DNA from: an uncultured Microthrixaceae bacterium
Lineage (GTDB): Bacteria > Actinomycetota > Acidimicrobiia > Acidimicrobiales > DATDAH01
NCBI GenBank assembly: GCA_964635055.1
Contig: CAZWMT010000006.1
Coordinates: forward strand, 70,896-134,895
Length of the DNA: 64,000 nt
Reading direction: 5' to 3'
The notes under the pieces are model-generated. The model was given only the letters and a program-made list of their open reading frames with translations, had not been told where the DNA came from and did no database searches. Positions 5,336 through 59,982 of this stretch are shown here, in pieces (positions within the stretch are counted from its first letter, which is position 1; each line of letters starts with the position of its first letter). The translations under genes and the position numbers were made by a program.

Positions 5336-6142
5336 TCAGTCGACGTAGTTCGGGGGGCGATCCTCCTTGCGGGACCGGATGTACTCCTCCAGGTTCTGGG
5401 TGGTGAGGCGGATGAGCAGCTGGTTGCGGTTCTCCAGGTCGATGGCCGCCTCGAGGCTGCCGATCTCGAGCGACGACCACAGCAGCTTCTTGGTCATGGC
5501 CACGCCGTGGGTGGAGAACCCGCAGATGCGCTCGGCCAGCTCGTAGCAGGTGTCGAGCAGCTCGCCGTCGGCCACGGTGCGCGACACCAGCCCGATGCGC
5601 TCGGCCTCGTCGGCGTGCACGTCGCGGCCCGACAGGCAGATCTCGAAGGCCCGGGACGAGCCGATGGCGCGGCTGAGCGTGTAGCTGAGGCCCAGCTCGA
5701 CCGCGCCGAGGCCGTTGTTGATGCCGGCGGCGCGCCAGTAGGCGGATTGCGCGGCCACCCGGATGTCCGCCCCGAGCGACAGGCACATGCCGCCGCCGAT
5801 GGCCGGGCCGTTGACCGCGGCGATCACCGGCTGGGGCATGTGGCGCATGATCGGCACCAGCTCGCTGAAGTGCTCCATGGCCCGGATGGCCATGCGCGAC
5901 AGCGGCAGGCCCTCGCTGTTGGGCGGCATGCCGGCATCCTCCAGGTCGAGCCCGGAGCAGAAGCCGGCCCCGGAGCCGGTGAGGACCACCGCCCAGGTGT
6001 CGTTGTCCTCCCCGGCCTCGCGCAGTGCGTCGCGCAGCGGCGTCACCGTGTCGAACGACATCGCGTTCATGCGCTCCGGCCGGTTCAACGTGAGCTGGCG
6101 CACGTGCGGGCGCGGCTCGGACACCTCGAGGTAGCTGGTCAT
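5336..6142 (-). CDS. Enoyl-CoA hydratase/isomerase (crotonase) family protein
   Basis: 'LTLNRPERMNAM', oxyanion-hole segment 'GSGAGFCSGLDL', 'AAVNGPAIGGG'. Clean 268-aa ORF. Confidence 0.9.
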   Translation of the reverse strand: MTSYLEVSEPRPHVRQLTLNRPERMNAMSFDTVTPLRDALREAGEDNDTWAVVLTGSGAGFCSGLDLEDAGMPPNSEGLPLSRMAIRAMEHFSELVPIMRHMPQPVIAAVNGPAIGGGMCLSLGADIRVAAQSAYWRAAGINNGLGAVELGLSYTLSRAIGSSRAFEICLSGRDVHADEAERIGLVSRTVADGELLDTCYELAERICGFSTHGVAMTKKLLWSSLEIGSLEAAIDLENRNQLLIRLTTQNLEEYIRSRKEDRPPNYVD

Positions 6143-6162
6143 GGACGCGGACCGTACTGCCC

Positions 6163-6208
6163 TCAGCTGCTCAGCTGCTCAGCTGCTCAGCTGCTCAGCT
6201 GCTCAGCT
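6163..6208. repeat. Tandem octanucleotide repeat (TCAGCTGC) x5.75
   Basis: Read directly: units at 6163, 6171, 6179, 6187 and 6195, plus a partial unit at 6203-6208. The array fills the gap between the stop of the serine hydrolase gene (TAG at 6207-6209, minus strand) and the crotonase start (6142). Each unit contains a CAGCTG palindrome. Confidence 0.95.
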
Positions 6209-12978: not shown

Positions 12979-13039
12979 GAACTCCCCATCGGCAGGTAGG
13001 ACAGTCGTTCAACGGGAACCCGGCCCTCGTCCCTCGGGC

Positions 13040-15292
13040 TCAGGGCTCCGGGTCGCCCACCGCCACCGGGAAGACGCGGTCGACGGCGGTGCCGTCGCCC
13101 AGCACGCCGCCGTAGTTGTGTCCCCAGCACCGGGCCTCGCCGTTGCGGAGCAGCGCGCAGACGTGGTTGTAGGTGCCGCTCAGGGCGGTGACCTCGCCCA
13201 GGGTCCCCACGCCGCCGATGCCGGCCACTGGGACGGGGATCGCGGTCGAGCCGGAGCCGGCGGACCCGAGCGACTCCCCGGCGCACCGCGCGACGGCATC
13301 CGTCGTGACGACGCAGAGCCGGAGGTAGCCCGCCTCGATGGCATCGCTGTCGGACCGGGCGTTGGTGCCGTCCTCGGCGAGGATCGCGCTCGGGAGTGTG
13401 TGCGACCGGCCACCGCCCTCCGGGGTCTGTCCCCAACACCACGCCCGGCCGTCGGTGTGGCGCCCGCAGGAGAGGACGAAGCTGGACGAGATCTGCTCGA
13501 TCCCCGTCAGCGGTCCGGTTCCGGCGGCGTTCTGGACGACCACCGGTCGTGGCGACGCCACCTTGGTGCCGTTGCCCAGAGCGCCCTGGCTGTTCGACCC
13601 CCAGCACCGCACCTCGCCGGATTCGAGCAGTGCGCACGAGTGCCAGTAGCCGCTGGCCACCGAGGTGACGTCGGTCAGGGGGGTGTCGCCGTCGACGGCG
13701 ACGACCGCTGCAGGACGTGAGCGGTCCGTCGACGTACCGTCGCCCAACTGGCCGAACGTGTTCCGGCCCCAGCAGAGCGCTCTGCCGTCGTCGAGCACGG
13801 CGCAGGTGTGCTGGTTCCCGCGGGCATCGATCTGAGCGATCCCGGTGAGCGGGCCGGAACCGTCGATGCTCCGCACCACGACCGGCAGGCTGGCATTGGC
13901 GGAGGTCCCGTCGCCGAGCTGACCGTAGGAGTTCGCCCCCCAGCACACCGCTCGACCGGAGCCGAGCAGCGCACAGGTCCGGGCCCATCCGGCAGAGAGC
14001 CGGGTGATGTCGGTGAGCGGCCCCGAGCCCTCGGGATCCAGCACCACCACCGGGCGCATCGAGTCGGTCGTGGTTCCGTTCCCCAGTTGCCCGTGATGGT
14101 TGATGCCCCAACAACGCGCCTGGCCGCTGGTCAAGAGCGCGCAGGTGTGTTGCTCGCCGGCGGCGATCTGCTCGATGCCCGTGAGCCGGGGCGGGATGGG
14201 TCGGTTCGAGAAGGTGCAGGTGACGTCGTCACGGGGGCCGAGCGTGATGGTGGCCCGGCGGGCGGCGAGGTCGACCGTCTCGCCGGGGCACGAGATGGCG
14301 GTGAGCTCGTGCCCGGGGACGTCGTCCTGGGTGATCGTGTAGGTGCCCGGCACCAGGCCGTGAGAGGTGATCGTGCGGGGCAGCCCGGCATCGGCGTCAT
14401 CGTCCATCGAGAACGTGCTGCAGCCCGACCCGAGGCAGCCCGTGAACCCGAAGTCCTGCCCGGAGTCGGGCGCGGTGTCCTCGACCAGGGTGATCGACTG
14501 GCTCCGGTTGGTGAAGGAGCAGTACACCGCCTCACCCGGATGCACGGTGATCGTGACCCGTCGGCGGGCAAGGTCGATCACCTCCGTCTCGTTGCACGTG
14601 AGCTCGGTCAGGTCCCATGCGGCGTTCGGTGCCTGCGTGACCGTGTAGGTGCCGGTCGGAAGGGCGTTCGTCTCCACGCGGACCGGGAGGCCGGGATCGG
14701 TGTCGTCGTCGAGCGAGAACGTGCCGCAGTTCGACGACTCGTCACACCCGGTGAAGGCGAAGTCCTGAGGGCCGTTCGGTTCGGTGTTCTGAGTGATCCG
14801 GATCGTCTGCGTGCGGTTGGCGAACGTGCAGAACACACCTTGCCCGGCCTGGAGGTCGACGGTGACCTGTCGTCGGGCCAGGTCGACCACCTCGGTCGTG
14901 GTGTTGGAGCACGAGATGCCCACCAGCGGCCAGTTCGCCGTCGGCGCCTGGGTGATCACGTAGGTGCCGGGGGAGAGCCCCATGCCCGTACGGGCGCCGG
15001 GGACCGTCGGATCCGAGTCGTCGTCGAGGACGAACGAGTCACACGCCGTGCCCGAGGTGCCCATGCAACCGGTGAACGTGAAGTCCTGCGCGTGCGAGGG
15101 TGACGACGACTGGCTCACCGACAGGAACGGCAACGTCACGATGGACGGCCGTGCGCCTCGCACGAACTCGGGCGCGCCGGCGGCGGGCTCGGGGCCGGCC
15201 GCCGCCACCGGGGTGGGCTGGCTCACCGCCAGCGCCGCGGCCACGGCCGCCAGCGCCGCGACCACCGCGATGAGGTGGCGGCGGAGGCGCAT
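13040..15292 (-). CDS. Secreted RCC1-repeat protein, tandem paralog of 10768..12978
   Basis: Same architecture as its neighbour and a nearly identical signal peptide ('MRLRRHLIAVVAALAAVAAALAVSQPTPVAAA'). DNA of 15214-15292 closely matches 12900-12978. Confidence 0.85.
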   Translation of the reverse strand: MRLRRHLIAVVAALAAVAAALAVSQPTPVAAAGPEPAAGAPEFVRGARPSIVTLPFLSVSQSSSPSHAQDFTFTGCMGTSGTACDSFVLDDDSDPTVPGARTGMGLSPGTYVITQAPTANWPLVGISCSNTTTEVVDLARRQVTVDLQAGQGVFCTFANRTQTIRITQNTEPNGPQDFAFTGCDESSNCGTFSLDDDTDPGLPVRVETNALPTGTYTVTQAPNAAWDLTELTCNETEVIDLARRRVTITVHPGEAVYCSFTNRSQSITLVEDTAPDSGQDFGFTGCLGSGCSTFSMDDDADAGLPRTITSHGLVPGTYTITQDDVPGHELTAISCPGETVDLAARRATITLGPRDDVTCTFSNRPIPPRLTGIEQIAAGEQHTCALLTSGQARCWGINHHGQLGNGTTTDSMRPVVVLDPEGSGPLTDITRLSAGWARTCALLGSGRAVCWGANSYGQLGDGTSANASLPVVVRSIDGSGPLTGIAQIDARGNQHTCAVLDDGRALCWGRNTFGQLGDGTSTDRSRPAAVVAVDGDTPLTDVTSVASGYWHSCALLESGEVRCWGSNSQGALGNGTKVASPRPVVVQNAAGTGPLTGIEQISSSFVLSCGRHTDGRAWCWGQTPEGGGRSHTLPSAILAEDGTNARSDSDAIEAGYLRLCVVTTDAVARCAGESLGSAGSGSTAIPVPVAGIGGVGTLGEVTALSGTYNHVCALLRNGEARCWGHNYGGVLGDGTAVDRVFPVAVGDPEP

Positions 15293-15336
15293 GAAGCCCT
15301 ATCGGGCAATTCGACCTCGCTCTGAGCGGCCGATTG

Positions 15337-19237: not shown

Positions 19238-19254
19238 ACGCAGGGCAGGGCGCG

Positions 19255-19302
19255 TTCTGGCACCGGATTCCGGTGCTACCGCCCCGAAGTCCGGTGCCAG
19301 TT
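19255..19302. repeat. Family-A palindromic element, diverged copy (A1)
   Basis: TTCTGGCACCGGATTCCGG...CCGAAGTCCGGTGCCAGTT. The arms CTGGCACCGGA (19257-67) and TCCGGTGCCAG (19290-300) pair perfectly. It lies between convergent genes (M23 stop 19237, VOC stop 19341). Confidence 0.75.
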
Positions 19303-22139: not shown

Positions 22140-22150
22140 TGTATCCCTCG

Positions 22151-22198
22151 TTCTGGCTCCCGATTCGACCGCGATAGCGATCGAATCGGGAGCCAGAA
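22151..22198. repeat. Family-A palindromic element (A2), perfect 18-bp stem; probable bidirectional terminator
   Basis: TTCTGGCTCCCGATTCGA (22151-68), a 12-nt loop, then TCGAATCGGGAGCCAGAA (22181-98). It sits between convergent stops at 22139 (+) and 22215 (-). Confidence 0.85.
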
Positions 22199-25386: not shown

Positions 25387-27123
25387 TCAGCGCTGGCCGC
25401 GCACGAGGCGGCCGGGACGGGCGCCCGTGTCGACGTCGTTGCGGCGGGTGACGGCACCGGCCACCACGGTGGCGGTGTAGCCGGACGCCTCCTGCAGCAG
25501 GCGCCGCCCGCCGCCGGGGAGGTCGTGGGCGAGCCGGGGTGAGCGCAGGGTGAGCGCGGCGTGGTCGATCACGTTGAGGTCGGCCCGTTGGCCGACCTCC
25601 ACCGTGCCCCGGTCGCCGAGGCCGTAGAGCTGGGCGGTGCGCTGGGTCTGCATCTGGATCACGCTCTCCAGCGACAACTGCGGCCCGCGGCTGCGGTCAC
25701 GGGCCCAGTGGGTCAGACCGTAGGTGGGGAGTGAGGCGTCGCAGATCATCCCGCAGTGGGCGCCCCCGTCCCCGAGCCCGAGCGCGGCCCGGGGATGGGT
25801 CATCTGCTCGCGGAGCACGTCGTGGTTGCCGTGGGTGTAGTTGAACAGCGGCAACATGAGCAGGGCCCGGCCCTCGTCCTCGCAGAGGAGGTCGTAGACC
25901 ATCTCGTCGGCGCTGACCCCGGCGGCCTCGGCCAGCGCCGCCGCCGACTGGTCAGGGGTGGGCTCGTACTCGGGTGGGTCGCCCATGACGAACAGCTTCT
26001 GGGGAATCGTGCGCAGGAAGGACGGGAGGCCGGCCCAGAGGCTGCCGTCGCCCGGCGCGTCCTCCTCGGTGAGGATGGCGGCGCGGACCTTCGGCTCGCG
26101 CAGTCGGCGCACGCGCTCGTCGAGGGGCAGGCCGGCGAGGGTCAGGTACGACGGTCGCAGCGCGAACGGGTGATGGGTCTGGAACCCGATCAGCATCCCG
26201 AACGGCCGGTTGGCGATCTGGGGGTAGATCTCGGCGCCCTCGTCGAGCGCCGTCATCGACTCCTCCATCTGCATCTTCCAGAGGTCCGGGGCGAGGTCGA
26301 CCTGCAGGACGATGAAGGTGACCGGGCGTTCGATCTCGGCGGACAGGCGGCGCATCCAGCTCATCTCCGCCGCGGCCGGCGAGAGATCGAGGCCGTCGAC
26401 ACCGGCGGGGGCGAGCTCGAAGATGGAGGCGCCGCCGCGGGCCATCGCCCGGCCGATGCCGAACAGCTCCTCTTCGGCGGCGTACGTGCCCGGGACGGGC
26501 TCGCCGTCGATGGCCCGGTGGGCGATGGTGCGCGAGGTGGAGAAGCCGAGGGCGCCGGCCTCCACCGCCTCCTGCACGATGTCGGCCATGGCCGCGATGT
26601 CCTCGGGGGTGGCAGGCTCGTTGCGGGCGCCGCGCTCGCCCATCACGTAGCCGCGCACGGCCCCGTGGGGGATCTGGGTGCCGATGTCGACCGCGAAGTG
26701 CCGGGCGTCGAGGGTGTCGAGGTACTCGGGGAAGGTCTCCCAGCCCCACGTCATCCCTTCCGCCAACGCAGTGCCGGGGATGTCCTCCACGCCCTCCATG
26801 AGCTGGATGAGCCACTCCTCCTGGCCGGGGTGGACGGGGGCGAAGCCGACGCCGCAGTTGCCCATGACGAGGGTGGTGACGCCGTGGCCCGCCGAGGGGT
26901 CGAGCGAGGTGTCCCAGGTGGCCTGGCCGTCGTAGTGGGTGTGGATGTCCACGAACCCCGGCGTGACCAGTTGGTCGGTGGCGTCGATGGTCTCGGCCGC
27001 CTCGGCCTCGATGGACGGAGCCACCTCCGTCACCAGGCCGTCCTTGACGCCGACGTCGGCGCGGCGGGCGTCTGCCCCCGTGCCGTCCACCAGCGTTCCC
27101 CCCGTGATGATCATGTCGAACAT
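25387..27123 (-). CDS. N-acyl-D-amino-acid deacylase (D-aminoacylase) family amidohydrolase
   Basis: 'MFDMIITGGTLVDGTG', 'TPGFVDIHTHYDGQATWD', 'GNCGVGFAP'. A strong SD (GAAGGAGGG) lies 11 nt upstream of the ATG. Confidence 0.85.
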   Translation of the reverse strand: MFDMIITGGTLVDGTGADARRADVGVKDGLVTEVAPSIEAEAAETIDATDQLVTPGFVDIHTHYDGQATWDTSLDPSAGHGVTTLVMGNCGVGFAPVHPGQEEWLIQLMEGVEDIPGTALAEGMTWGWETFPEYLDTLDARHFAVDIGTQIPHGAVRGYVMGERGARNEPATPEDIAAMADIVQEAVEAGALGFSTSRTIAHRAIDGEPVPGTYAAEEELFGIGRAMARGGASIFELAPAGVDGLDLSPAAAEMSWMRRLSAEIERPVTFIVLQVDLAPDLWKMQMEESMTALDEGAEIYPQIANRPFGMLIGFQTHHPFALRPSYLTLAGLPLDERVRRLREPKVRAAILTEEDAPGDGSLWAGLPSFLRTIPQKLFVMGDPPEYEPTPDQSAAALAEAAGVSADEMVYDLLCEDEGRALLMLPLFNYTHGNHDVLREQMTHPRAALGLGDGGAHCGMICDASLPTYGLTHWARDRSRGPQLSLESVIQMQTQRTAQLYGLGDRGTVEVGQRADLNVIDHAALTLRSPRLAHDLPGGGRRLLQEASGYTATVVAGAVTRRNDVDTGARPGRLVRGQR

Positions 27124-27126
27124 GTC

Positions 27127-27269
27127 GCTCTGTCCCTCCTTCGTCGGGACGGCTTCGCCATCCGGTTCGTCCTCGGTGCTGCTCCACTCCGTTGCGCAGC
27201 GTCGGTCCTGCGTCGGGACGGCTTCGCCATCCGGTTCGTCGGTGCTGCTCCACTCCGTTGCGCAGCGTC
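27127..27269. repeat. Family-B element, two tandem copies (B1, B2), supplying the 5' leader/SD of the D-aminoacylase gene
   Basis: Units 27141-27203 and 27211-27269 (CGGGACGGCTTCGCCATCCGGTTCGTC..GGTGCTGCTCCACTCCGTTGCGCAGCGTC). 27127-27169 is the reverse complement of 30744-30786, identical over 43 nt. Confidence 0.9.
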
Positions 27270-27305
27270 ACCGCCGCCGGGTGCTTCCCCCGTGACCCCA
27301 GTCTC

Positions 27306-27782
27306 TCAGGTGGTGGGGCCCGTGGGGTCCTCGGGGGTGTGGTCGATGCCCGTGGTCGAGTAGCCGTCCATGATGTGCTCCATCCACCACACCGGCGCGG
27401 CGTCGAGCAGCCCTTGGAGGTCGGGGTAGTCCCACCAGCGGGTGAGGCGGCCCTCGAAGTCGATCTCGTGCACCGAGACGAAGCGCACCGTGAAGGTCTC
27501 GCCGGTGTGCCAGTGCCACTCCTCGGCGTGCTCGGTCATCACGCACTGCTCGTCGGCGACGATGCGCCCGGGGTGGTGGAGGATGTCCTCCAGGGGCTCG
27601 AGGCCGAGGCGCAGACGCGCGGCGATCTGTGCCGGGCCGATGGCCACGTCCTCGTCGGGCGTGAACACGTCGGTGTACTGCCCGTCCGGCGTGAAGTACG
27701 CGCCCACCGCCTCGAAGTCGCGCCGGTAGAGGTCCTGCCAGAAGCGCTCGATCAGTTCCCTGTTGGCGTCGGCTGTCCGCAT
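27306..27782 (-). CDS. SnoaL/NTF2-like (limonene-1,2-epoxide-hydrolase-like) protein
   Basis: 'NRELIERFWQDLYRRDFEAVGAYFTPDGQYTD'. Size is 158 aa. Fold call is from memory. Confidence 0.7.
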   Translation of the reverse strand: MRTADANRELIERFWQDLYRRDFEAVGAYFTPDGQYTDVFTPDEDVAIGPAQIAARLRLGLEPLEDILHHPGRIVADEQCVMTEHAEEWHWHTGETFTVRFVSVHEIDFEGRLTRWWDYPDLQGLLDAAPVWWMEHIMDGYSTTGIDHTPEDPTGPTT

Positions 27783-27814
27783 GCCGCGACGTTAAGGCGT
27801 CCACGGCTGGGTCG

Positions 27815-27870
27815 GGAACTGGCTCCCGATTCGACGGTCCTGGCGGTCGAATCGGGAGCCAGGACGGATC
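27815..27870. repeat. Family-A palindromic element (A3)
   Basis: GGAACTGGCTCCCGATTCGAC-ggtcctggcg-GTCGAATCGGGAGCCAGGACGGATC. The 17-bp stem is perfect. It lies in the divergent region between 27782 (-) and 28016 (+). Confidence 0.9.
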
Positions 27871-28015
27871 TGCGGACGGCCACGCCGCGCGGTCCCTCGG
27901 CTCAGGGGTCCCGACCCGCCCTGGCGCCAGGAAGTGACTTTGCGCCCTAGGCCCACGAGGCGGACCGGTCGATCATGGGTACGGGCGGCCCGCAGTCACC
28001 CATGAGGAGCGAACG

Positions 28016-30553
28016 ATGCGAGCGATCCGGATCTCGACCTCGGTGGTGGCGACGACGGCGCTCGTCGCCCTGCTCACGTTGGCCTCGGGCCCTGCCGTGG
28101 CCGCACCGGCGCGGGCCCACATCGTCACCGCGTCGCCGGAGGTGACCGTCGTGTCGGTCGCGAGCGCCGGCGATTACCGGCGGGCGCTCGCTGACCTCTC
28201 GCGCCTGGTGGGGACGGGCTCCAGTCGCATCGAGGTCACCGCCGACTTCGCCATGAGCGGCTCGGCGTGGCCCACCTACGACGGGTCCCGCTCGCTCACC
28301 GTCGACGGCAACGGCCACCGGGTGGACGGGGGCCCGGCCCTGCGCCCGTTCCTGCTGGTCGAGGGCGGTCCGGCGGTGAAGGTGCAGGACGTCACCCTCG
28401 CCGGCTTCCGCAACTCGGCGATCATCGCTACGCCCGATGTGCTCGACCGGTGGGGCCAGCTGATCGTGCGGCGCAGCCGGTTCAGCGGGAACTCGGCCTC
28501 TGGACCGGGTGGCGCGATCGCCGCGGCGTGGGTGGACGTCAACCAGAGCACGTTCGACGGCAACCACGCGACCGGTGAGGACCACTGGGGCGGCGGCGCC
28601 GTCTACGCGCAGTACTACCTGACCGCCACCCGCAGCACCTTCACCGGGAACTCGTCCGACTTCGACGCGGGCGCGCTCCAGTCGTCGGGCGACCTCTTCC
28701 TGAACGCATCGACCGTCGTCGACAACACCTCCCCGGCCACGTCCGTACACGTCGACGACACCCTCGAGTCGATGGGGTCGGTCGTCGCCAACACCCTCGG
28801 CGGTGGTGAGGGCTGCGCGGTCGGAACCACCAATGACCACGGCAGCTTCTCGTCCGACGCATCGTGCGGCTTCGACATCACCGACGCCACCGATCCCGGC
28901 CTGGCACCGCTGGCCGACAACGGCGGCGCCACGCCCACCCGCATGCCTGGCGAGGACTCGCCCCTCGTCGATGCCGGGCCCGGCGGTGACCCGCTGTCCG
29001 ACCTGTTCTGCTACCCGACCGACCAGCGTGGGGTGCGCCGCCCGGTGGGCGGGGCGTGCGACCTCGGTGCGGTCGAGCGGGGCTGGGGCCAAGTGGTGAC
29101 GACCGGTGCCGACGCCGGGCCGGGCTCGTACCGCCAAGCCGTCGTCGACGCGTCGGCCGCGACCCTGCCGGTGCGCATCGACCTCGACCAGCAGCAGGTG
29201 TCACTCACCAGCGGGGACGTCGTCTACAGCGGCGTTCAACCGCTGGAGGTGCACGGCGTGCCGGGCGCGGGGATCGACGGTGGCGGTGCCGGTCAGATCC
29301 TGCGGGCCACGGTCTCGCCGTCGGTCTCGGTGGTGGACCTGGTCCTGCAGCACGGGGCGTCGGACGACTCGGGCGGCGCGGTCGAGGTCGAGGCCACCGG
29401 CGGGGACCTGACGATCGAGCGCTCCGCCCTCCTCGACAACTCGGCCGACGTGTACGGGGGCGCGGCCGGCTCGCAGGGCACCCTGGTGGTGCGCAACTCG
29501 ACGGTGTCGGGCAACGAGGCCGGCATCGGCGGCGGCGGGGTCGCCGCCGCGGGGGTGCTCACCCTCGAGCACGCCACGGTCACCGACAACACCTCGGGCG
29601 TGGGGGCCAACGCTGCGGGCTTCTCGGCCATCCACTCCTTCGGCTCCGTCCTCGCCGAACCGCACGGCCCGTCGAACTGCTCGTTCTCCGGGGCCACCGT
29701 GTCGGAGGGTCACAACTACTCGACCGACACCACCTGCAACCCGGGCACCGGCACCGACGTGGCCAGCGGTGCCGATCCCCGCCTCGGACCGGCGCGCGAC
29801 AACGGGCGGGCGACCCCCACACGTTTCCCGCTGGCGGGATCACCGCTCGTCGACGCCATCCCCGTCGAGGACTGCCGGGCGCCGTTCGACCAGCGTCAGG
29901 TCGACCGCCCGTTCCCGGTCGAGGGCCCGTGCGACATCGGTGCCATCGAGGGCGTGTACCCGGGCCACCACTTCACCGACGTCCCGGACAAGTACGACGC
30001 CGCCGTGCGCTGGATCTCGAGCGACGTCAACGATCCCGCGCTGATGACCCCCTACGCCGGCGGGGCGTTCCTCCCGAGGCTCAGCCTGACCCGCGGCAAG
30101 CTGGCGCTCACGCTCTACCGCCAGGCCGGTACGCCCGACGTGTCGTCGTTGCCGCCCGTCGCCTTCACCGACGTGCCCGCCGCGCAACGAGACGCCGTGC
30201 GGTGGGCGGTCGGCACCGGCATCCTCGCCGGGCGCACGCCGACCCGCTTCGGGACCGGCGACCCCAGCACACGTGTCCAGGTGGCCGGTGCCCTCTACCG
30301 TGCCGCCGGGTCACAGGACGTCACCCCGTTCCCGTTCCACGGGCTCGATGACGTCCCCGCATGGGCCGACGACGCGGTCACGTGGGCCGTGCACCACGGG
30401 ATCATGGTCGGGTCCGGAGGGTCGTTCCACTCCCGGGAGCCGGTCACCCGCGGCCAGTTCGCCCGATCCGACTACCGGATGGTCATCGACCCGGGAGCCT
30501 GGGCCGACCCGTCGGCGGCGCCGTCGACGGTGCCGTTCCGCCCCTCACCCTGA
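28016..30553 (+). CDS. Secreted right-handed beta-helix (PMP/choice-of-anchor-Q-like) protein with 3 C-terminal SLH domains
   Basis: SD GAGGAG is followed by ATG 28016, then a signal peptide 'ALVALLTLASGPAVAAPA'. Beta-helix repeats ('GGAI..', 'F.GN.A') are present. The motifs 'DQRGVRRPVGGACDLGAVE' and 'DQRQVDRPFPVEGPCDIGAIE' follow. SLH units: 'FTDVPDKYDAAVRW', 'FTDVPAAQRDAVRW', 'LDDVPAWADDAVTW'. Confidence 0.75.
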   Translation: MRAIRISTSVVATTALVALLTLASGPAVAAPARAHIVTASPEVTVVSVASAGDYRRALADLSRLVGTGSSRIEVTADFAMSGSAWPTYDGSRSLTVDGNGHRVDGGPALRPFLLVEGGPAVKVQDVTLAGFRNSAIIATPDVLDRWGQLIVRRSRFSGNSASGPGGAIAAAWVDVNQSTFDGNHATGEDHWGGGAVYAQYYLTATRSTFTGNSSDFDAGALQSSGDLFLNASTVVDNTSPATSVHVDDTLESMGSVVANTLGGGEGCAVGTTNDHGSFSSDASCGFDITDATDPGLAPLADNGGATPTRMPGEDSPLVDAGPGGDPLSDLFCYPTDQRGVRRPVGGACDLGAVERGWGQVVTTGADAGPGSYRQAVVDASAATLPVRIDLDQQQVSLTSGDVVYSGVQPLEVHGVPGAGIDGGGAGQILRATVSPSVSVVDLVLQHGASDDSGGAVEVEATGGDLTIERSALLDNSADVYGGAAGSQGTLVVRNSTVSGNEAGIGGGGVAAAGVLTLEHATVTDNTSGVGANAAGFSAIHSFGSVLAEPHGPSNCSFSGATVSEGHNYSTDTTCNPGTGTDVASGADPRLGPARDNGRATPTRFPLAGSPLVDAIPVEDCRAPFDQRQVDRPFPVEGPCDIGAIEGVYPGHHFTDVPDKYDAAVRWISSDVNDPALMTPYAGGAFLPRLSLTRGKLALTLYRQAGTPDVSSLPPVAFTDVPAAQRDAVRWAVGTGILAGRTPTRFGTGDPSTRVQVAGALYRAAGSQDVTPFPFHGLDDVPAWADDAVTWAVHHGIMVGSGGSFHSREPVTRGQFARSDYRMVIDPGAWADPSAAPSTVPFRPSP

Positions 30554-30579
30554 CGGGCCGCGCGGACCGGCTGTCAGCA

Positions 30580-30635
30580 GATCCGTTCTGGCTCCCGATT
30601 CGACCGCCAGGACGGTCGAATCGGGAGCCAGTTCC
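30580..30635. repeat. Family-A palindromic element (A4), inverted relative to A3/A5
   Basis: The reverse complement matches A3 at all but about 4 positions over about 66 nt, flanks included. It starts 27 nt after the stop at 30553. Confidence 0.9.
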
Positions 30636-30710
30636 CGATCTGTCCGCTCGACCCGTCCTGGGTCGTGGGAGGGTGGTGGTGATCGGCGGGGTGGGGCGTG
30701 GGGACGTGGG

Positions 30711-30786
30711 AGGCTGCGCAGCGGAGCGGAGCAGCGGCGCCGTCGAACCGGATGGCGAAGCCGTCCCGACGAAGGAGGGACAGAGC
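30711..30786. repeat. Family-B element (B3), inverted relative to B1/B2, supplying the 5' leader/SD of the downstream gene
   Basis: GCTGCGCAGCGGAGCGGAGCAGCGGCGCCGTCGAACCGGATGGCGAAGCCGTCCCGACGAAGGAGGGACAGAGC, followed directly by agcATG (30790). Confidence 0.9.
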
Positions 30787-30789
30787 AGC

Positions 30790-33369: not shown

Positions 33370-34149
33370 ATGTCGAAGCGGCGCCGCACCCTCGCGGTCT
33401 CTCTGGTCGGGCTCGTGCTCGCGGGGGCGACGATCGCACTCCGCTTGAGCGGCACCACCTCGGTCGAGACCTCCGCGCTGGCGCAGAGCCTGGCCGGCGT
33501 CGAGCCCGCCCCCCCGTCGTCCTCCACCACCAGCACCACCGCCGACCCTGCGACCGAAGGGTTCATGGCCGCGCACGCCGGGGTCCCGTCGGTCGCCCTC
33601 TACGACTCACCCACCGCCACCCAGCCCGTGGGGACACTGGCCAACCCGACGGCGGAGAACGTGCCCCTGGCCTTCCTGGTGCGGGCCGAGCAGGGCACCC
33701 GCTATCGCGTGGCCCTGCCCGAACGACCGAACGGCGCCGAGGCCTGGGTGGACAAGCAGGCGGTGTTCACCAACCCGGTGCCCAACCGGATCGTGGTGGA
33801 GGTGGGCGCACGCCGTCTCACCGTGTACCGCGGCCACAGTGACGAGGTCGTGATGGCCACGAACGTGGCCGTCGGCAAGGACGCCACGCCCACCCCGCTC
33901 GGCCACTTCTACGTCGACATCTCCGTGGCCCAGAACACCTACACCCCGTGGATCCTGAGCGTGGCCGGCTTCTCCGACGTGCTGCAGAGCTTCGGGGGCG
34001 GAAGGGGCCAGATCGCCATCCACGGGTGGAGCGACACGTCGGTGCTGGGCCAGAACGTCAGCAACGGCTGCGTGCGGGTGAGCTTCGACGACCTGTGGCG
34101 CCTGCGCGATCTCGCGCCCGTGGGCACCCCGGTCGACATCGTCGCGTGA
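33370..34149 (+). CDS. L,D-transpeptidase (YkuD domain), membrane-anchored
   Basis: ATG 33370 ('MSKRRRTLAVSLVGLVLAGATIAL'). Catalytic motif 'IAIHGWSDTSVLGQNVSNGCVRV'. Confidence 0.85.
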   Translation: MSKRRRTLAVSLVGLVLAGATIALRLSGTTSVETSALAQSLAGVEPAPPSSSTTSTTADPATEGFMAAHAGVPSVALYDSPTATQPVGTLANPTAENVPLAFLVRAEQGTRYRVALPERPNGAEAWVDKQAVFTNPVPNRIVVEVGARRLTVYRGHSDEVVMATNVAVGKDATPTPLGHFYVDISVAQNTYTPWILSVAGFSDVLQSFGGGRGQIAIHGWSDTSVLGQNVSNGCVRVSFDDLWRLRDLAPVGTPVDIVA

Positions 34150-34203
34150 CACTGGTTCCGACTCCGTCGGAACGGCTTCGCCATCGGGGCTCGTCGGCGT
34201 CGG
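34150..34203. repeat. Family-B element, partial copy (B6), filling the gap between convergent stops
   Basis: CACTGGTTCCGACTCCGTCGGAACGGCTTCGCCATCGGGGCTCGTCGG. It starts 1 nt after the TGA (34147-49) and ends 2 nt before the kinase stop (34205). It aligns with 58648-58700. Confidence 0.8.
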
Positions 34204-34204
34204 G

Positions 34205-35383
34205 TCAGTAGCCGAAGGGCACCAGCAGTCGCCCGTCCACCCAGGCCTCCCAGCCGTTGGAACAGCGGATGTGGGCCCAGTCGCCGTGCCAACCCAGCAC
34301 CCCGACGTCCAGGTCGGGGTCGAGGATCGCGGTCACCGGCAGGCGCAGGTCGGGCCCGGCCCACGCGTGCATGCCGGTCCAGGGCACCCGGTGGGTGGGC
34401 TGGTAGGTGTGCGAGGGCGACGCCACCGTGGCGTAGCCGGCATCGGCCACAGCGGTGTTCGAGGTGATCACGCGCTCGACCGCGGTGGCGGCCAGCCCCC
34501 CACCGTCCACGTCCTCGGCGGTCCGGGGAGGCGCCACCCCGTCGGCGGGCGCCACGTCGAGGCGGCGCGACAGCTCCTGGAGCGACCGGGCCACCTCCGC
34601 CACCGACGACGGACGTCGGGCCGCGTCCTTGGCCATGGTGGACCGCACCAGCGTGGCCACCTCGTCGGGCACGCCCGACGCCCGGAGATCGGCCGGCTCC
34701 TCGTCCAGGATGCGCCGGAGCAGCGACGGGAGGGCCTCGTCGCGGTGGGACGGGAAGGGCGGTCGCCCGCTGATCAGCTCGTACAGGGTGGCCCCGAACG
34801 AGTAGATGTCCGAGGCCGCCGAGGGTGAGTGGCCGTTGATCACCTCGGGCGGCGCGTAGAGGAAGCTGGCGGTCACCCCAGCGGTGTGGGTGGTCTGCTC
34901 ACCGGCGATGCGAGCGATCCCGAAGTCGGCGAGCTGCGGGGAGCCGTCGGCGGTGGTCAACACGTTGGCCGGCTTCAGGTCGCAGTGCGTCACGCCGGCG
35001 TCGTGAGCTGCCGCCAACGCCCCGGCCAGTTGGCCTCCCACGCGGAGGGTGTCGGCCCAGCCCAGCGCGCCGGTCCGGGCCAACCGATCGGCGAGTGAGC
35101 CGCCCGAGAGGTACGCCATCACGAGGTAGGGGCGGCCCTCGGCGTTGAAGCCGGCGTCGTGCACCGTGACGATGCCGGGGTGCTCGGACAGCACCCCCAG
35201 TGCCTCACATTCGCGTTCGAAGCGTCGCCGGGCCCGGTCGTCGACGTCGACCGTGATCACCTTCACCGCCACCGGCCGTTTGAACGCGGGCTGGAAGGCC
35301 TTGTACACGACCGCGAACCCGCCCGAGCCGATGCGCACCGGGTCGGAGAGCCCCGGGATCCCCAGATCCGTCGGGTCGGTCAC
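34205..35383 (-). CDS. Ser/Thr protein kinase with C-terminal SH3-like domain
   Basis: GTG start at 35383. 'IGSGGFAVVYKA', 'VAVKV', 'HCDLKPANVL', 'DFGIA', 'YAPPE'. C-terminus 'GWHGDWAHIRCSNGWEAWVDGRLL'. No TM segment seen. Confidence 0.9.
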   Translation of the reverse strand: MTDPTDLGIPGLSDPVRIGSGGFAVVYKAFQPAFKRPVAVKVITVDVDDRARRRFERECEALGVLSEHPGIVTVHDAGFNAEGRPYLVMAYLSGGSLADRLARTGALGWADTLRVGGQLAGALAAAHDAGVTHCDLKPANVLTTADGSPQLADFGIARIAGEQTTHTAGVTASFLYAPPEVINGHSPSAASDIYSFGATLYELISGRPPFPSHRDEALPSLLRRILDEEPADLRASGVPDEVATLVRSTMAKDAARRPSSVAEVARSLQELSRRLDVAPADGVAPPRTAEDVDGGGLAATAVERVITSNTAVADAGYATVASPSHTYQPTHRVPWTGMHAWAGPDLRLPVTAILDPDLDVGVLGWHGDWAHIRCSNGWEAWVDGRLLVPFGY

Positions 35384-43149: not shown

Positions 43150-43347
43150 ATGAGCGAAGCCGACAACCTGACAGGGCGTGAGCGGGCCGTCGTCGCGGCC
43201 GTCGCCGCGCTGATCGCGGTGCTGGCCATGCTGCGGCCGACCCCGTCGCTGGGCGACCAGGACGACCGCGTCGACGTCGTGCCGATCGACGCCACCGCGC
43301 TCAGCGGCGCCGGCCCGCGCGCCTCGGCGGCCCCGTCTGCGGGCTAG
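43150..43347 (+). CDS. Small membrane protein (65 aa)
   Basis: '[30 protein letters not shown]...'. One TM helix and near-saturated GC3. Its end overlaps the convergent gene by 4 nt. Confidence 0.45.
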
Positions 43348-43871
43348 CCCGCGCGGTTGCGCCGCTTGCGCCGTAGCGCCCAGCTGAGCGCGAACAGCAC
43401 CGCGGTGAGGGCCACGCCGATGCCCACCTTCTTGGCGGGCCCGGACCTGGCTGCGTCGTCGCGGGGGCTGGGCGCCGTCGTGGCGCCGGAGGCGGGCACG
43501 GGGGCGGCCCCGGTCGTGACCGGCTCGGGCTCGGCGACCGGCTCGGCCTCGGGCTCCGCGACAGCCTCGGGCTCGGCGACAGCCTCGGGCTCGGCGACAG
43601 CCTCGGGCTCGGCGACAGGCTCTGGCTCTGGCTCTGGCTCTGGCTCGGGCTCGGGCTCGGGCACGGCGAGAGCCTCGGCGGCCGGTTCGGATTCGGCAAC
43701 CAGCTCGGGTTCGGGCTCGGCGATCGTCTCGGGCTCGGCGACCGGCTCCGGGTCGTCGGCCGCAGGGTCGGAGTCGTCGGCGGCGACGTCGAGCAGGTCG
43801 TCCACGGGTGCGGGCTCGTCGCTCGCCGGCTTGGGGCGGGCGTGGCCCTTCTGGGGGTCGTAGGTGGCCAT
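43344..43871 (-). CDS. Acidic, Pro/Glu/Ala repeat-rich protein with C-terminal TM anchor (tail-anchored), ParA-associated
   Basis: The start is 7 nt after the ParA stop. 'AEPEAV' x4 and 'EP' x8 repeats. It ends with '[27 protein letters not shown]'. Confidence 0.7.
43558..43660. repeat. In-frame coding tandem repeats: 18-mer (GCGACAGCCTCGGGCTCG) x3 then hexamer (GGCTCT/GGCTCG) x7
   Basis: Read directly: 18-mers at 43558, 43576 and 43594, and hexamers over 43617-43658. Confidence 0.9.
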
Positions 43872-43877
43872 CTGCTG

Positions 43878-44654
43878 CTAAGTGTGGTCGGGGACGACCT
43901 GGCCGAGCAACGTGGCGAACTCCGCGGCCGCGGTGTCGGCCCCGGGGCGGTGGCCGAGCGCGTGCAACGGCATCGACTGCGCCGACGCCTCGGCGATGGC
44001 CGCGCGCAGGTGGATCGGGCCGAGCACGAGCGGGCCGTACGACTCCACGAGCTGGTCGTGCCAGTAGCGGGCGTCGCGGGTGCGTCCCAAGCGGTTCACC
44101 ACCACGCCTGCGGTGGTGAGGTCGATGCGCTGGCGCTCGCGCACCCGGTCGATGGTGCGCAGCATCTGGGCCACACCGTCGGAGGCCCAGGCGGCCGGCT
44201 CGCTGACCACCACCACCCGGTCGGCGGCGACCAGCCCGTTGACCGTGAGCAGCCCCAGCGACGGCGGGCAATCGATGATGACGAGGTCGTGGGGGATGCC
44301 CTTGAGGGCGGTGCGCAGCCGGTCCTGGGCACCCACTGCGTCCGTGGCCAGCTGCAGCTCACGCCCGGCCAGGGCCGGCGTGCTGGGCGCGACGTCGGGC
44401 ACCGTGCCCTCGCCACCGGGCCATGCGGCAGGGATCACGACACGCTCGAGGCCACCGGGCTGGTCGACGGCCAACGCGTCGTCCACCGTGGTGGACGCGT
44501 CCCACACGCCGAGACCCGTGGTGGCGTTGGCCTGGGGGTCGAGGTCGACCACCAGCACCCGCCGGCCCTGGAGGGCAGCGGCGGCGGCGAGTCCGAGGGC
44601 GACGGTGGTCTTGCCCACCCCACCCTTCTGGTTGGCCACGGCGAGGACCGGCAT
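43878..44654 (-). CDS. ParA/Soj/MinD-family P-loop ATPase
   Basis: Deviant Walker A 'VANQKGGVGKTT', 'VLVVDLDPQANAT', 'DLVIIDCPPSLG'. 258 aa. Confidence 0.9.
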   Translation of the reverse strand: MPVLAVANQKGGVGKTTVALGLAAAAALQGRRVLVVDLDPQANATTGLGVWDASTTVDDALAVDQPGGLERVVIPAAWPGGEGTVPDVAPSTPALAGRELQLATDAVGAQDRLRTALKGIPHDLVIIDCPPSLGLLTVNGLVAADRVVVVSEPAAWASDGVAQMLRTIDRVRERQRIDLTTAGVVVNRLGRTRDARYWHDQLVESYGPLVLGPIHLRAAIAEASAQSMPLHALGHRPGADTAAAEFATLLGQVVPDHT

Positions 44655-50544: not shown

Positions 50545-50600
50545 GGAACTGGCTCCCGATTCGACGGTCCTGGCGGTCGATTCGGGAGCCAGAACGGATC
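50545..50600. repeat. Family-A palindromic element (A5)
   Basis: GGAACTGGCTCCCGATTCGAC-ggtcctggcg-GTCGATTCGGGAGCCAGAACGGATC. There is one stem mismatch. It lies between convergent stops at 50498 (+) and 50626 (-). Confidence 0.9.
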
Positions 50601-57198: not shown

Positions 57199-58647
57199 AT
57201 GATCGACCGGGCCGAGCACGCCGCGACCAGGCGGCTGCACCGCGAGCTGCGCTCACCGCTTCCCGCCGAGGGCGACGCCGGCGGGGTCGACCACGTCGAC
57301 GACCTGCGCGAGCTGTGGGACGGTCTCGTCGCCGACGCCATGCCCGTGGAGCCGATCGTGGAGTCGATCCCTCCGGTCGAGTCGGCCACACCGGTGGCGC
57401 CGCTGCCCCCGCTGCCCACCCGGACCAACCGCAGGGGAGCCGAGACGGTGGCGCCCGAGTGGCCCGCGGTGGCGCCACGGGTGGCAGGCCGCACCGTGAT
57501 CCCCACCGGCGAGCCCGACCTGGTGATCCTGCCGTCGGGCGAGCCGGCCACGCGCACCGCGCCGCCCGGTCCCGCAAGCTCCCCCGGTCCGACGCCCGGC
57601 ACGATCGCCACACCCGCGGGCGACGCCCTCCGCCCCCCCGCCGGCGCGGCCGCTCCCACCGATGCCGGCGCAGACGCCGACGGGCCCGAGCCCGATCCGG
57701 AGGTCGGGGCGAAGAAGCCGTCGCGACGCGAGCGCCGGGCGGCCAAGCGGTTGGCGAAGGACGAGAAGCGTGGTGCCCGTCTCGAACTGCGCCGGCACCG
57801 CATCCTGCCCCGCACCGTCATCGGCATCACCATGATGCTCCTCGCCGCCGCGGTCGGCGCCGCGTTCTCGGGAGCGCTGCTCTACGCCTATTACGACTGG
57901 CGCCTCTCGACCAACGAGGACCGGGTGGGCGTCCTGGCCGAGAGCCTGCAGCAGCGGCTCACCGACGCGGGGGCCTCCATCGACGAAGCCCAGCAACAGG
58001 CGCTGGCCGAGTTGCAGGATCGGGCCGGGCCCCTGATCGACCAGAAGAGCGACGCCGTGGCCATGGCCGACCTCACCCCGGTGGTGCTGCCCTCCACCTG
58101 GTTCGTGTCGACCCTCGACGAGAACGGCCAGCCGTCGGTGGGCACCGCGTTCGTCGTGTCGTCCGACGACACCAGCACCCTCCTGTTGACCTCGTACCGG
58201 GCCGTGTCGGCATCGACCACCCAGCCCGGCCCGGAGATCCAGCTGACCAACGACGGTGGCGACCCGGTGGTGGCGCAGCTCTACAGCTGGGACCCCGAGC
58301 ACGATCTGGCCCTGCTCACCATCGACCGGGGCGGCCTGACGCCGTTGACTTGGGCCACCGGCGACGACGCCGCGGTTACGGGGGAGCGGGTGTACGCGGC
58401 CAGCGGCGTGGGGGCCGAGGGCGTGACCTTCAGCCCCGGGACCGTGCTCGACCAGAGCGCCGACGGCATCCAGATGACCGCACCGGTCGGCAGCTCGTGG
58501 CAAGGAGGCCCGGTGGTGACCCAGGACGGCAAAGTGGTGGCGGTGGCGTCGCTGGCCTACCAGCCGCTCGGCTTCAACCCCGGCCAGGTGCCCTTCGCCC
58601 CGCCCGTCGACGCCGCCTGCGAGCGCGTCCTCGACTGCGGCGCGTAA
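57199..58647 (+). CDS. Membrane-anchored trypsin-like (S1C-fold) domain protein, catalytic residues apparently degenerate
   Basis: GGGAG SD followed by ATG 57199. Pro-rich cytoplasmic region, then TM 'VIGITMMLLAAAVGAAFSGALLY'. 'GTAFVVSSDDTSTLLLTSYRAV', 'EHDLALLTI', 'GSSWQGGPVV'. Confidence 0.7.
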   Translation: MIDRAEHAATRRLHRELRSPLPAEGDAGGVDHVDDLRELWDGLVADAMPVEPIVESIPPVESATPVAPLPPLPTRTNRRGAETVAPEWPAVAPRVAGRTVIPTGEPDLVILPSGEPATRTAPPGPASSPGPTPGTIATPAGDALRPPAGAAAPTDAGADADGPEPDPEVGAKKPSRRERRAAKRLAKDEKRGARLELRRHRILPRTVIGITMMLLAAAVGAAFSGALLYAYYDWRLSTNEDRVGVLAESLQQRLTDAGASIDEAQQQALAELQDRAGPLIDQKSDAVAMADLTPVVLPSTWFVSTLDENGQPSVGTAFVVSSDDTSTLLLTSYRAVSASTTQPGPEIQLTNDGGDPVVAQLYSWDPEHDLALLTIDRGGLTPLTWATGDDAAVTGERVYAASGVGAEGVTFSPGTVLDQSADGIQMTAPVGSSWQGGPVVTQDGKVVAVASLAYQPLGFNPGQVPFAPPVDAACERVLDCGA

Positions 58648-58863
58648 CACTGGCTCGGACTCCGTCCGAGCGGCTTCGCCACCCGGTTCGTCGGTGCCGC
58701 TGCTCCGCTCCGCTGCGCAGCGTGGCCTCTCGCGGTGGCTCGGACCCGTGTGGTCGGCTTCGCCATCCGGTTCGTCGGTGCTGCTGCTCCGCTCCGCTCC
58801 GCTCCGCCGCGTGGCCTCTCGCGGTGGCTCGGACCCGTCCGCTGGACCCGTCGAAGGTCAGCG
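58648..58863. repeat. Family-B element, tandem array of ~89-nt units (B4, B5, partial B5')
   Basis: Units 58648-58736 and 58737-58825, plus a partial unit at 58826-58863. The array begins 1 nt after the TAA (58645-47) and lies between convergent genes. Confidence 0.9.
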
Positions 58864-58923
58864 TCGCTCGGATTGGCGCCTGATGCTCGTCCTGACCCTC
58901 GCGTCGGGCGCCGGTTCGCGTGC

Positions 58924-59982
58924 TCAGGGACCGGGCGCCGCCGTCGTCGGCGTGGTCGCCGGGGGCAGGGTGGTCGGCGTCGGGGCGCCGCCCGGCAGGT
59001 CGGCCTCGAGGGCGGCGAAGATCGCGTTGGCGGCGCGGTCGCCACCGGCCCGGGTGAGGTGGATGCCGTCACTGTTGCGCATGTTCACCAGCTCGCCGCC
59101 GGCGCCGGTCAGGTAGTCCGAGTAGCTGCCGTTCTCGTCCTCGAACAGGTCGTACAGCGACACCACGGTGGTGTTGGGGTGGTCGGCGGCCACGTCGGCG
59201 AAGATGCCGTTCATCAGCCGGAGTCGGGCCGAGTAGTCGGCGTCGCGGGCGATGGGCTGGCCGATCCAGTACACCCGGACCCCCTGCTGTTCGAGGTAGG
59301 TCATCACCGCGTCGACCCGGCGGGCGTACGCGGCGTTCCACTCGGGGTCGCCGGGCTGGAACACACCAGTGTCGAGCTCCATGCCCTGGCCGTCGTTGGC
59401 CCCGAACACCACCACCATCGCGTCGGGGTGGTTGGTCTCCACCACCGACTGGATCTCGGCGGGCCAGTTGTAGAAGTCGGGTCGGGTGAGGCCACTCGAG
59501 AACTCGAAGTCGAGCGTGGCCTCCATCACACCGGTGGAGTCGGCCCGCTCGATCAGCGACTGGCCGAGGACCTCGGCCTGCGAGTCGCCCACGATCCAGA
59601 TCGTGAGCGGGTCCTCGGCGGTGGGCTCACGGAGGGCGGCGGCGTCGGCTGCGGGGGGCGGGCCCTCGGTGGGCGCCTCGGCCAACTCGTCGAAGGCGGC
59701 GGCGTCGCCGAAGGTGTGGCCCAAGGCGTCGTCGGCGGTCTGCCGCGGGCGGTCCAGCAGCACGAGGTGGCTGAGCCCGTCGATGGGCCTCACCAGCGCC
59801 AACTCCACCGTCCGCTGCCAGCCGAACGGCTGGCGTTCGATGATGCGCAGCAGGCTCGAGGCGTTCATCAGCGTGAACAGGCCGAACGCCACGACGCCCA
59901 CGATCGTGACCTGCCGCAGGGTGAGCGGGCGGGTCTCGGGGGCCGGAGGCGGGCGCAGTGCGGTGCGTTGGTGCTCGGGCAT
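58924..59982 (-). CDS. SGNH/GDSL-like hydrolase (DUF459-type), membrane-anchored; partner of MBOAT
   Basis: TM 'VTIVGVVAFGLFTLM'. 'IWIVGDSQAE' (GDS block), 'VVVFGANDGQ', 'NSDGIHLT' (DxxH). Confidence 0.75.
   Translation of the reverse strand: MPEHQRTALRPPPAPETRPLTLRQVTIVGVVAFGLFTLMNASSLLRIIERQPFGWQRTVELALVRPIDGLSHLVLLDRPRQTADDALGHTFGDAAAFDELAEAPTEGPPPAADAAALREPTAEDPLTIWIVGDSQAEVLGQSLIERADSTGVMEATLDFEFSSGLTRPDFYNWPAEIQSVVETNHPDAMVVVFGANDGQGMELDTGVFQPGDPEWNAAYARRVDAVMTYLEQQGVRVYWIGQPIARDADYSARLRLMNGIFADVAADHPNTTVVSLYDLFEDENGSYSDYLTGAGGELVNMRNSDGIHLTRAGGDRAANAIFAALEADLPGGAPTPTTLPPATTPTTAAPGP

Follow-up and report, generated by a model that had tools for sequence, protein, structure and literature searches.

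The 64,000-nt stretch of contig CAZWMT010000006.1 analysed here (the window), which derives from an uncultured Microthrixaceae bacterium, carries at four loci a short repeat, termed family B, that is a real, previously undescribed and lineage-restricted repeat family of uncultured Acidimicrobiales/Microthrixaceae. Its units contain a covarying hairpin, lie with one end against stop or start codons, and occupy sites in some lineages whose orthologs are empty in others. The reading that we favour, with moderate confidence, is that of a non-autonomous dispersed repeat whose copies enter at the ends of genes, are amplified in place as tandem arrays and degrade through deletions.

The forward strand of a unit is defined throughout as the + strand at 58645, which is the C-rich strand. 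The 19-nt core GGCTTCGCCAYCCGGTTCG has five exact matches in the window, at 27151 (+), 27220 (+), 30744 (-), 58672 (+) and 58756 (+), and a search allowing up to three mismatches returned six matches, of which the one at 51946 is a three-mismatch chance match, as against 0.14 expected from shuffled sequence, with none of 100 shuffles reaching six. A profile hidden Markov model (HMM) built from family members recovers exactly six window units at four loci with E = 1e-7 to 1e-20, namely 27131-27203, 27206-27270, 58649-58724 and 58751-58803 on the + strand, 30711-30782 on the - strand and a truncated unit at 34151-34201 (+), the next-best window match having E=0.05. Tandem Repeats Finder delimits arrays at 27137-27269 (2.0 copies, period 69) and 58651-58841 (2.2 copies, period 89).

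Units are 70-100 nt long and share one order of parts. They start with the terminus (G)T(G/A)A-CAYTGG or its variant TCACAYTGG, continue with a hairpin, P1, that takes up 17-19 nt and has a 5-7-bp stem and a loop of TCCTTCGTC, TCGTCCCTC or TCC, and pass through the near-invariant core CGGCTTCGCCATCCGGTTCG and about eight variable bases to a tail of GC(T/G)GCTCCGCTCCGC with a variable number of GCTCC, often ending in ...GCRNCGTCAC; as an inverted repeat the termini match over no more than about 5 nt (GTGAC/GTCAC). The base composition of the forward strand is 43% C, 28% G, 22% T and 7% A. Read on the reverse strand, the P1 loop is GACGAAGGAGG, which makes a strong Shine-Dalgarno sequence. Across 39 aligned units, P1 is 99% paired and shows compensatory double changes in five of five pairs, a degree of covariation reached by none of 500 shuffles. 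At least eight distinct compensated stems occur, including GCTCC/GGAGC, GTCCC/GGGAC, GGCCC/GGGCC, GCAGC/GCTGC, ATCCC/GGGAT, CCCC/GGGG, CTCGGAC/GTCCGAG and TTCCGAC/GTCGGAA. In three copies, the 3-bp mini-hairpin P2 within the core (GGC-UUC-GCC) shows the compensated pairing GCC...GGC, and a possible third helix (CGGU/RCCG) was set aside because it pairs on the forward strand only through G-U and shows zero double changes. Whole units fold on either strand no more stably than shuffled sequence (z = +0.3 to -1.5), and the unit as a whole is therefore not a globally structured RNA. Promoter and terminator scans around the arrays, a test of sequence only, found no sites, and the hexamer TANNNT was present in none of 42 units on the forward strand and in 2 of 42 on the reverse strand. 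Among candidate identities, an intrinsic terminator was rejected, as no hairpin with a T-run lies around the arrays and P1 is followed by CGGCTTCGCC; a CRISPR array was rejected as well, since the units abut without spacers and the linker between them is itself repeated.

In nearly all arrays the P1 end lies directly against a gene boundary, either a stop codon or the complement of a start codon, whereas the tail end shows no such precision, the next gene lying 0 to ~120 nt away. In 16 of 37 arrays a long forward open reading frame (ORF) with high G+C at third codon positions ends at the P1 end; nine of these 16 have the stop exactly 27 nt from the core, and this stop is therefore the T(G/A)A of the element's own terminus. 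On the C-rich strand, the upstream gene takes its stop codon from the terminus T(G/A)A-CAYTGG, and frame analysis assigns the junction at loci L001, L013 and L102 to the stop of a conserved protein ending in ...RRILLA. In at least 14 of the 37 arrays, 29-31 nt separate the core from a start-codon complement, so placed that the reverse strand reads GAAGGAGG(G/A)(A/G)C, then 7-10 nt, then ATG or GTG; the P1-loop GAAGGAGG stands 8-12 nt before the ATG or GTG of at least eight independent genes. Once orthologous sites are collapsed, ~12 independent stop-adjacent and 8-10 independent start-adjacent insertions remain. The flanking genes, which encode amidohydrolase, SnoaL-like, L,D-transpeptidase, Ser/Thr kinase, trypsin-like protease and DUF459 proteins, are unrelated in function, and a shared regulon was rejected on that ground.

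Both kinds of boundary are found in the window. The two-unit array at 27124..27270 (+, 69-nt period) lies between a SnoaL-like gene (stop complement 27306-27308) and an amidohydrolase gene at 25387-27123 on the minus strand (start-codon complement CAT, 27121-27123). P1 of its first unit (GTCCC-TCCTTCGTC-GGGAC, 27132..27150, +, supported by covariation) reads GTCCCGACGAAGGAGGGAC on the minus strand, with the Shine-Dalgarno sequence GAAGGAGG 8 nt upstream of the amidohydrolase ATG, counted from the hairpin end; behind it lie the core GGCTTCGCCATCCGGTTCG with P2 at 27151..27169 and the tail (GCTGCTCCACTCCGTTGCGCAGCGTC) at 27178..27203, and the second unit has its core at 27220-27238 and its tail, ending in the terminus CGTCAC, at 27244-27270 (all +). 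The other start-adjacent locus is a single unit at 30711..30789 whose forward strand is the minus strand (tail 30712-30735, core 30744-30762, P1 30763-30781), and which gives the + strand GAAGGAGGGAC plus 8 nt before the ATG at 30790 of a 239-aa protein (MEKLMYV...) without a Pfam match. The two stop-adjacent loci, at 34147 and 58645, are both of the kind in which the element's own terminus is the stop. At 34147..34204 (+), a truncated unit with a degenerate core (34174-34193) and no tail begins with the TGA of a YkuD-domain gene (34147-34149), CACTGG (34150-34155) and a P1 of TTCCGAC-TCC-GTCGGAA (34156-34172), and the stop complement of a convergent kinase gene follows at 34205-34207. The array at 58645..58863 (+) comprises two units and a partial third, with 84 nt from core to core as compared with the period of 89 given by Tandem Repeats Finder. 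Its first unit starts with the TAA of a trypsin-like protease gene (58645-58647), CACTGG (58648-58653) and a P1 of CTCGGAC-TCC-GTCCGAG (58654-58670), followed by the core (58672-58690) and tail (58699-58722); the second has a degenerate P1 (~58738-58755), a core (58756-58774) and (GCTCC)4 (58786-58807), the rest of the array, to ~58863, is linker and degenerate P1, and a convergent DUF459 gene has its stop complement at 58924-58926.

An earlier sequence-only reading had placed the repeat at these four loci, and all four are present as it gave them, now resolved into six HMM units; its remark that there are no unique spacers also holds. Some of its details need adjustment. The two copies that it described at 58648-58863 are two units, and its additional 38-nt partial copy is inter-unit linker with a degenerate hairpin. 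The 26-nt block that it found shared with the reverse complement at 30713 is indeed identical and starts at 58696 rather than 58697. The common stop-codon/CACTGG junction is real, and the 1-nt gap that had been described is not, CACTGG abutting the TGA at 34147-34149 and the TAA at 58645-58647. Finally, the copies do lie between ORFs, as the term intergenic implied, but with the hairpin end in contact with the stop codon, or itself providing it, or else 8 nt away from a start codon.

Position relative to transcription constrains what the unit could do as RNA. At L066 and L102, for example, only the forward strand can be mRNA sense, in the SnoaL-amidohydrolase operon only the reverse strand can be, and it is therefore unlikely that all copies share a function that depends on one RNA strand.

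Comparison of orthologous sites bears on how the units came to lie at gene ends. The window, with a G+C content of 72%, shares 93% DNA identity with contig 2 of assembly JBGAOY01 across the syntenic stretch. At the protease site, family B is present in the window and in L111, L114, L120 (JBGAOY01), L121 and L122, and it is absent from L112, L113, L115, L116 and L123, in which the protein has a longer tail. Filled orthologs end in ...LDCGA, with GC(G/A/C)-TAA or TGA and CACTGG and the units directly after; empty orthologs read on, for example to LDCGGTSPSAGG, LECDTGTPEAGTTG or LDCGAGAPDPAAPAG before the stop, so that 8-10 residues are cut off at the filled site. The Ala codon before the protease stop varies synonymously and is also present in some long-tail forms, a pattern from which it follows that the insertion occurred inside the 3' end of the coding region and that the element's first triplet became the stop. 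This insertion is common to lineages with protease identities of 68-97% and is therefore old. Unit number at the site ranges from one (L114, L121 and L122) through about two with a partial third (window) to at least three (L111). In the three single-unit copies (L114 4428-4526, L121 2831-2924 and L122 3006-3098) the same ~17-nt insertion splits the core (GCCACGTCGGCGGGCCTGGCGGnGGGTTCG), which implies that a broken-core copy can persist over long divergence. P1 at the protease site is of the CTCGGAC type in the window and L120 and of the GCTCC type in the other filled orthologs, and the identical CTCGGAC hairpin recurs at an unrelated JBGAOY01 locus (L109); together, this recurrence and the switch of P1 type point to conversion between family-B copies. 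As a separate observation, L120, the closest relative of the window, has between its family-B array and the DUF459 gene a lower-GC ORF of 130 aa (3118-3510, JBGAOY010000002.1) without a Pfam match, which is absent from the window.

At the amidohydrolase site, the window and L080 have two units, L110 and L117 have one, and L099 retains a remnant consisting of part of the core and a degenerate P1. The site is empty in L118 (80% protein identity), with a 61-nt spacer, a native AAGGGGG and a GTG at the same codon, and in L065, with a 12-nt spacer. On this comparison, the unit upstream of the amidohydrolase gene has taken the place of the native ribosome-binding site. At the YkuD site, L110 has no unit, the stop position is unchanged and the spacer is 22 nt. 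At the site of the MEKLMY gene starting at 30790, L065, L099 and L117 have two units each and L110 and L118 one each; L118, being empty at the amidohydrolase site and filled at the MEKLMY site, indicates that the insertions are of different ages. Orthologous sites filled in some lineages and empty in others establish insertion as the way in which family B arrived. No direct repeat that could be a target-site duplication was seen beside filled sites, where divergence blurs the boundaries; the insertion boundaries are not fixed because the intergenic flanks of filled and empty sites have diverged too far.

The distribution of family B is narrow. A core-pattern scan of one genome per species returned at least 110 loci. 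Among the matches listed, full units occur in 23 loci, all of them from six assemblies labelled Acidimicrobiales/Microthrixaceae (JBGAOY01, CAYYDZ01, CAZYPY01, JACJWK01, JAYRFK01 and CAVVNP01), and the other ~87 consist of the 19-mer core alone within coding DNA of unrelated phyla. With units among the matches listed, the window and orthologous metagenome contigs counted together, the totals are at least 64 units in at least 37 arrays, and the listed units are confined to the window, Acidimicrobiales/Microthrixaceae metagenome-assembled genomes and related metagenome contigs. Arrays occur at a density of 1 per 16 kb in the window, with ~1 additional array per 13 kb in the JBGAOY01 loci, which suggests a few hundred arrays per genome, a figure extrapolated from density rather than counted. 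Rfam covariance models matched nothing, neither at the gathering threshold throughout the window nor at E<=10 in 58500-59000. Plasmid and phage sequences searched by BLAST and viral contigs scanned with the core pattern likewise yielded no match, and searches of the literature for repeats in Microthrix or Acidimicrobiia turned up no account of this one. The initial description of a dispersed, structured element family without a known counterpart is thus borne out: the family is present in the window, at least six Acidimicrobiales/Microthrixaceae assemblies and related metagenome contigs, its structure comes down to one hairpin with strong covariation, and no Rfam entry matches around the main array. 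The presence/absence comparison that had been proposed yielded both filled and empty sites, and the family's occurrence in relatives means that it is not merely a local duplication.

Within arrays, which hold 1-4 units at periods of 67-98 nt, neighbouring units always follow one another head to tail as direct repeats (27 of 27 pairs). Unit identity within an array reaches 99-100% in L051 and L073, which indicates recent tandem duplication, and decay takes the form of truncation and internal insertion. Comparison of the window with L117 gives 92% identity for the unit, as against 71% for the adjacent spacer and 73% for third codon positions of the neighbouring gene; selection or concerted evolution has thus held change in the unit below that of neutral sequence.

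Such constancy lends some weight to a host-selected cis-acting signal, an account that we consider unlikely, in which the copies would have been spread by recombination and kept by selection rather than as a selfish repeat. The C-rich RNA past a stop codon would then provide a 3'-end hairpin and a Rho-loading or insulating tract, and the G-rich strand a strong ribosome-binding leader. Conservation of 92% against ~72% at neighbouring neutral sites, P1 covariation, a possible third helix that pairs only through G-U on the forward strand, the C-rich forward composition (43% C, 28% G, 7% A), a Shine-Dalgarno sequence in use by real genes and the keeping of copies at orthologous sites despite deep divergence would all be consistent with a signal of this kind. 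However, copies occur in both orientations relative to transcription, so that no single RNA strand can be the functional one, the whole unit folds like shuffled sequence (z +0.3 to -1.5), U-tract terminators and promoter hexamers are missing, truncated and broken-core units persist, and unit number varies freely beside genes that have no function in common.

Orientation-independent function would suit a site in double-stranded DNA, and the array could accordingly be imagined as a set of binding sites for a nucleoid-associated or regulatory protein, a reading that we hold to be very unlikely. Pairing does not explain the near-invariant 19-20-nt core, in which two of three YTTCG(Y)C motifs spaced 12-14 bp apart are found, the third being in the P1 loop, and direct reading shows TTCGTCGG repeated within the unit; the layout would resemble the direct-repeat sites of response regulators or the IHF sites of BIME and Correia elements. 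Against this, a covarying P1 stem is needless for a double-stranded site, copies with the 17-nt core-splitting insertion persist in three lineages, and the flush position at stop and start codons is left unexplained.

The reading that the unit is translated, whether as a small ORF, as a TGA read-through extension or past a selenocysteine insertion hairpin following UGA, is extremely improbable and close to refuted. It would draw on a hairpin that begins 6 nt past an in-frame TGA, on a TGA frame that is free of stops in 28 of 42 units while both other forward frames are stop-free in most units, and on a readable 16-codon ORF of the reverse strand (MAKPSRRRRDR...). Nevertheless, array periods are a multiple of 3 in 10 of 27 cases, which equals chance expectation, the compensatory change of GGC..GCC to GCC..GGC would swap amino acids, proteins of empty orthologs end nearby without a unit, some filled sites have TAA in place of TGA, and no Rfam match of the selenocysteine-insertion (SECIS) type appears even at E<=10. 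The periods and the compensatory changes, which would alter any encoded peptide, likewise uphold the earlier view of the element as non-coding.

Under the favoured reading of family B as a non-autonomous insertion repeat, a unit would enter at a gene end with its P1 end flush with the gene boundary, multiply in tandem to 1-4 units and then suffer truncation and internal insertion. Gene-end insertions may be harmless or even useful, since one strand of the unit brings a stop codon and the opposite strand a ribosome-binding site, and would persist for that reason; P1 may be kept through recognition in single-stranded DNA by a mobilising enzyme or through stabilisation of an mRNA end; and the core may stay constant by gene conversion among many copies or by selection. 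Movement would be the work of an enzyme. A stronger version, in which the unit would be a mobile gene-end cassette whose insertion mechanism actively targets translation boundaries, directly behind a stop codon or in its place or no more than ~10 nt from a start codon, is quite unlikely in our estimation, and we place just as little confidence in the corollary that the anti-Shine-Dalgarno/Shine-Dalgarno hairpin and terminal TGA help to choose and repair the target; if targeting did operate, the gene-end position would be more than what selection left after random insertion.

Several observations weigh against an insertion repeat of this kind. A Pfam search of the window found no transposase or integrase domain in its 46 ORFs, in keeping with the earlier remark that no transposase lies nearby, and none of these ORFs is a RAYT (Y1 HUH transposase). 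Terminal inverted repeats measure only ~5 nt, and no target-site duplication is definable. The most conserved part of the unit is internal, which is unusual for transposase-driven miniature elements, although retrieval by core pattern inflates this contrast. The excess of unit identity (0.92) over spacers (0.71-0.80) and third codon positions (0.73) could mean a host-selected function. Lastly, several insertions are old, as the protease site with its 68-97% identities illustrates, and no clearly recent transposition was caught.

In terms of classification, family B is a new family in the known class of small bacterial dispersed repeats (REP, MIRU, REP2), outside every named family. MIRU appears to be its closest analogue, likened by description rather than by sequence, in which no relationship is expected: it consists of 40-100-bp tandem intergenic units with ends overlapping neighbouring genes and with filled and empty sites (Supply et al. 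1997, summarised in PMC3184786). Both have actinobacterial hosts, units of 40-100 bp in tandem intergenic arrays, copy numbers varying between relatives, and filled and empty orthologous sites indicating insertion, and the family-B unit end overlaps a stop codon in at least nine arrays or lies near a start codon in at least 14. MIRU small ORFs are in frame and co-oriented with neighbouring genes, within operons (PMC3184786), whereas family B has no in-frame mini-ORFs, no bias of periods to multiples of 3 and both orientations relative to genes; further differences are the covarying terminal hairpin and the (GCTCC)n tail of family B, in which the tetranucleotide direct repeats of MIRU were not found.

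Other classes share single traits. Neisseria REP2 and Borrelia IR-A/IR-B lie directly upstream of unrelated genes and supply a ribosome-binding site (PMC3184786; Morelle et al. 2003), and REP2, at 120-150 bp, carries a promoter and is not tandem (PMC3184786). Family B resembles these repeats in its lack of long terminal inverted repeats, its internal stem-loops and its donation of a ribosome-binding site (and start context), but it is tandem, a consensus scan found no promoter-like site in its units, and no stop-codon-bearing 3' role on the other strand is reported for REP2. REP units are 20-40-nt imperfect palindromes with a conserved 5' GTAG-like tetranucleotide, and REPINs are mobilised by RAYT transposases (PMC3184786). 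With REP, BIME and REPIN elements, family B has in common a short GC-rich hairpin with conserved flanking bases, the absence of a transposase within the element, and many intergenic copies, often just past stop codons and between convergent genes; it differs in that the 5-7-bp hairpin is a minor part of a 70-100-nt, otherwise non-palindromic unit, the flanking motif is CAYTGG rather than GTAG, and units follow each other as direct tandem repeats instead of forming inverted pairs or BIME clusters. Miniature inverted-repeat transposable elements such as the Correia element are likewise small, non-autonomous, dispersed and insertion-polymorphic and can donate expression signals; family B is distinguished from them by the lack of terminal inverted repeats of at least 10 bp (only GTGAC...GTCAC, ~5 nt), the lack of an identifiable target-site duplication, and head-to-tail arrays.

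The filamentous bacteria responsible for sludge bulking belong to the Microthrixaceae, a family whose genomes have been obtained almost exclusively as metagenome assemblies. With a repeat of this abundance, assembly is affected, as is, through donated stop codons and ribosome-binding sites, the calling of gene ends; its variable unit numbers affect strain typing, as variable-number tandem repeats of MIRU (MIRU-VNTR) do for M. tuberculosis. One small element here clearly remodels both kinds of gene end, with a protease C-terminus truncated and the ribosome-binding site of an amidohydrolase gene replaced. Family B opens no new category of system, and its mobilising machinery may be worth finding.

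The window also holds a second repeat, family A, a near-perfect palindrome with a ~20-bp stem (CTGGCTCCCGATTCGACC...GGTCGAATCGGGAGCCAG) in an 87-93-nt unit, mostly between convergent genes, with copies at 22149-22196, 27815-27862, 30584-30631 and 50545-50592 and a weak one at 19253-19300. JBGAOY01 (L080, 93% DNA identity) lacks the copy at 27812-27898 at the orthologous position, and family A is therefore also insertion-polymorphic; a related palindrome fills the protease/DUF459 spacer of L123 at ~2940-2990, a spacer that has no family-B unit. An SLH-domain gene at 28016-30553, flanked by a pair of family-A copies in inverted orientation (87 nt, 90% complementary), is present in L080 and missing between the SnoaL-like and MEKLMY genes in L110, L065, L099, L117 and L118; the stretch 27800-30700 has the appearance of ~2.9 kb inserted into a divergent promoter region in one lineage.

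Elsewhere in the window, a perfect tandem repeat (CTCAGCTG, 5.9 copies, 100% identity) at 6162-6208 lies directly upstream of the start of an enoyl-CoA hydratase gene (5336-6142, minus strand). Adjoining genes at 10768-12978 and 13040-15292 (both minus) encode paralogous secreted proteins with SpaA-like and RCC1-repeat domains, the DNA of whose N-terminal signal peptides is 89% identical (12883-12981 and 15197-15295). An acidic low-complexity protein is encoded at 43344-43871 (minus) by GGCTCG-based tandem repeats of 18, 36 and 42 nt, and its gene adjoins that of a ParA-like ATPase (43878-44654).

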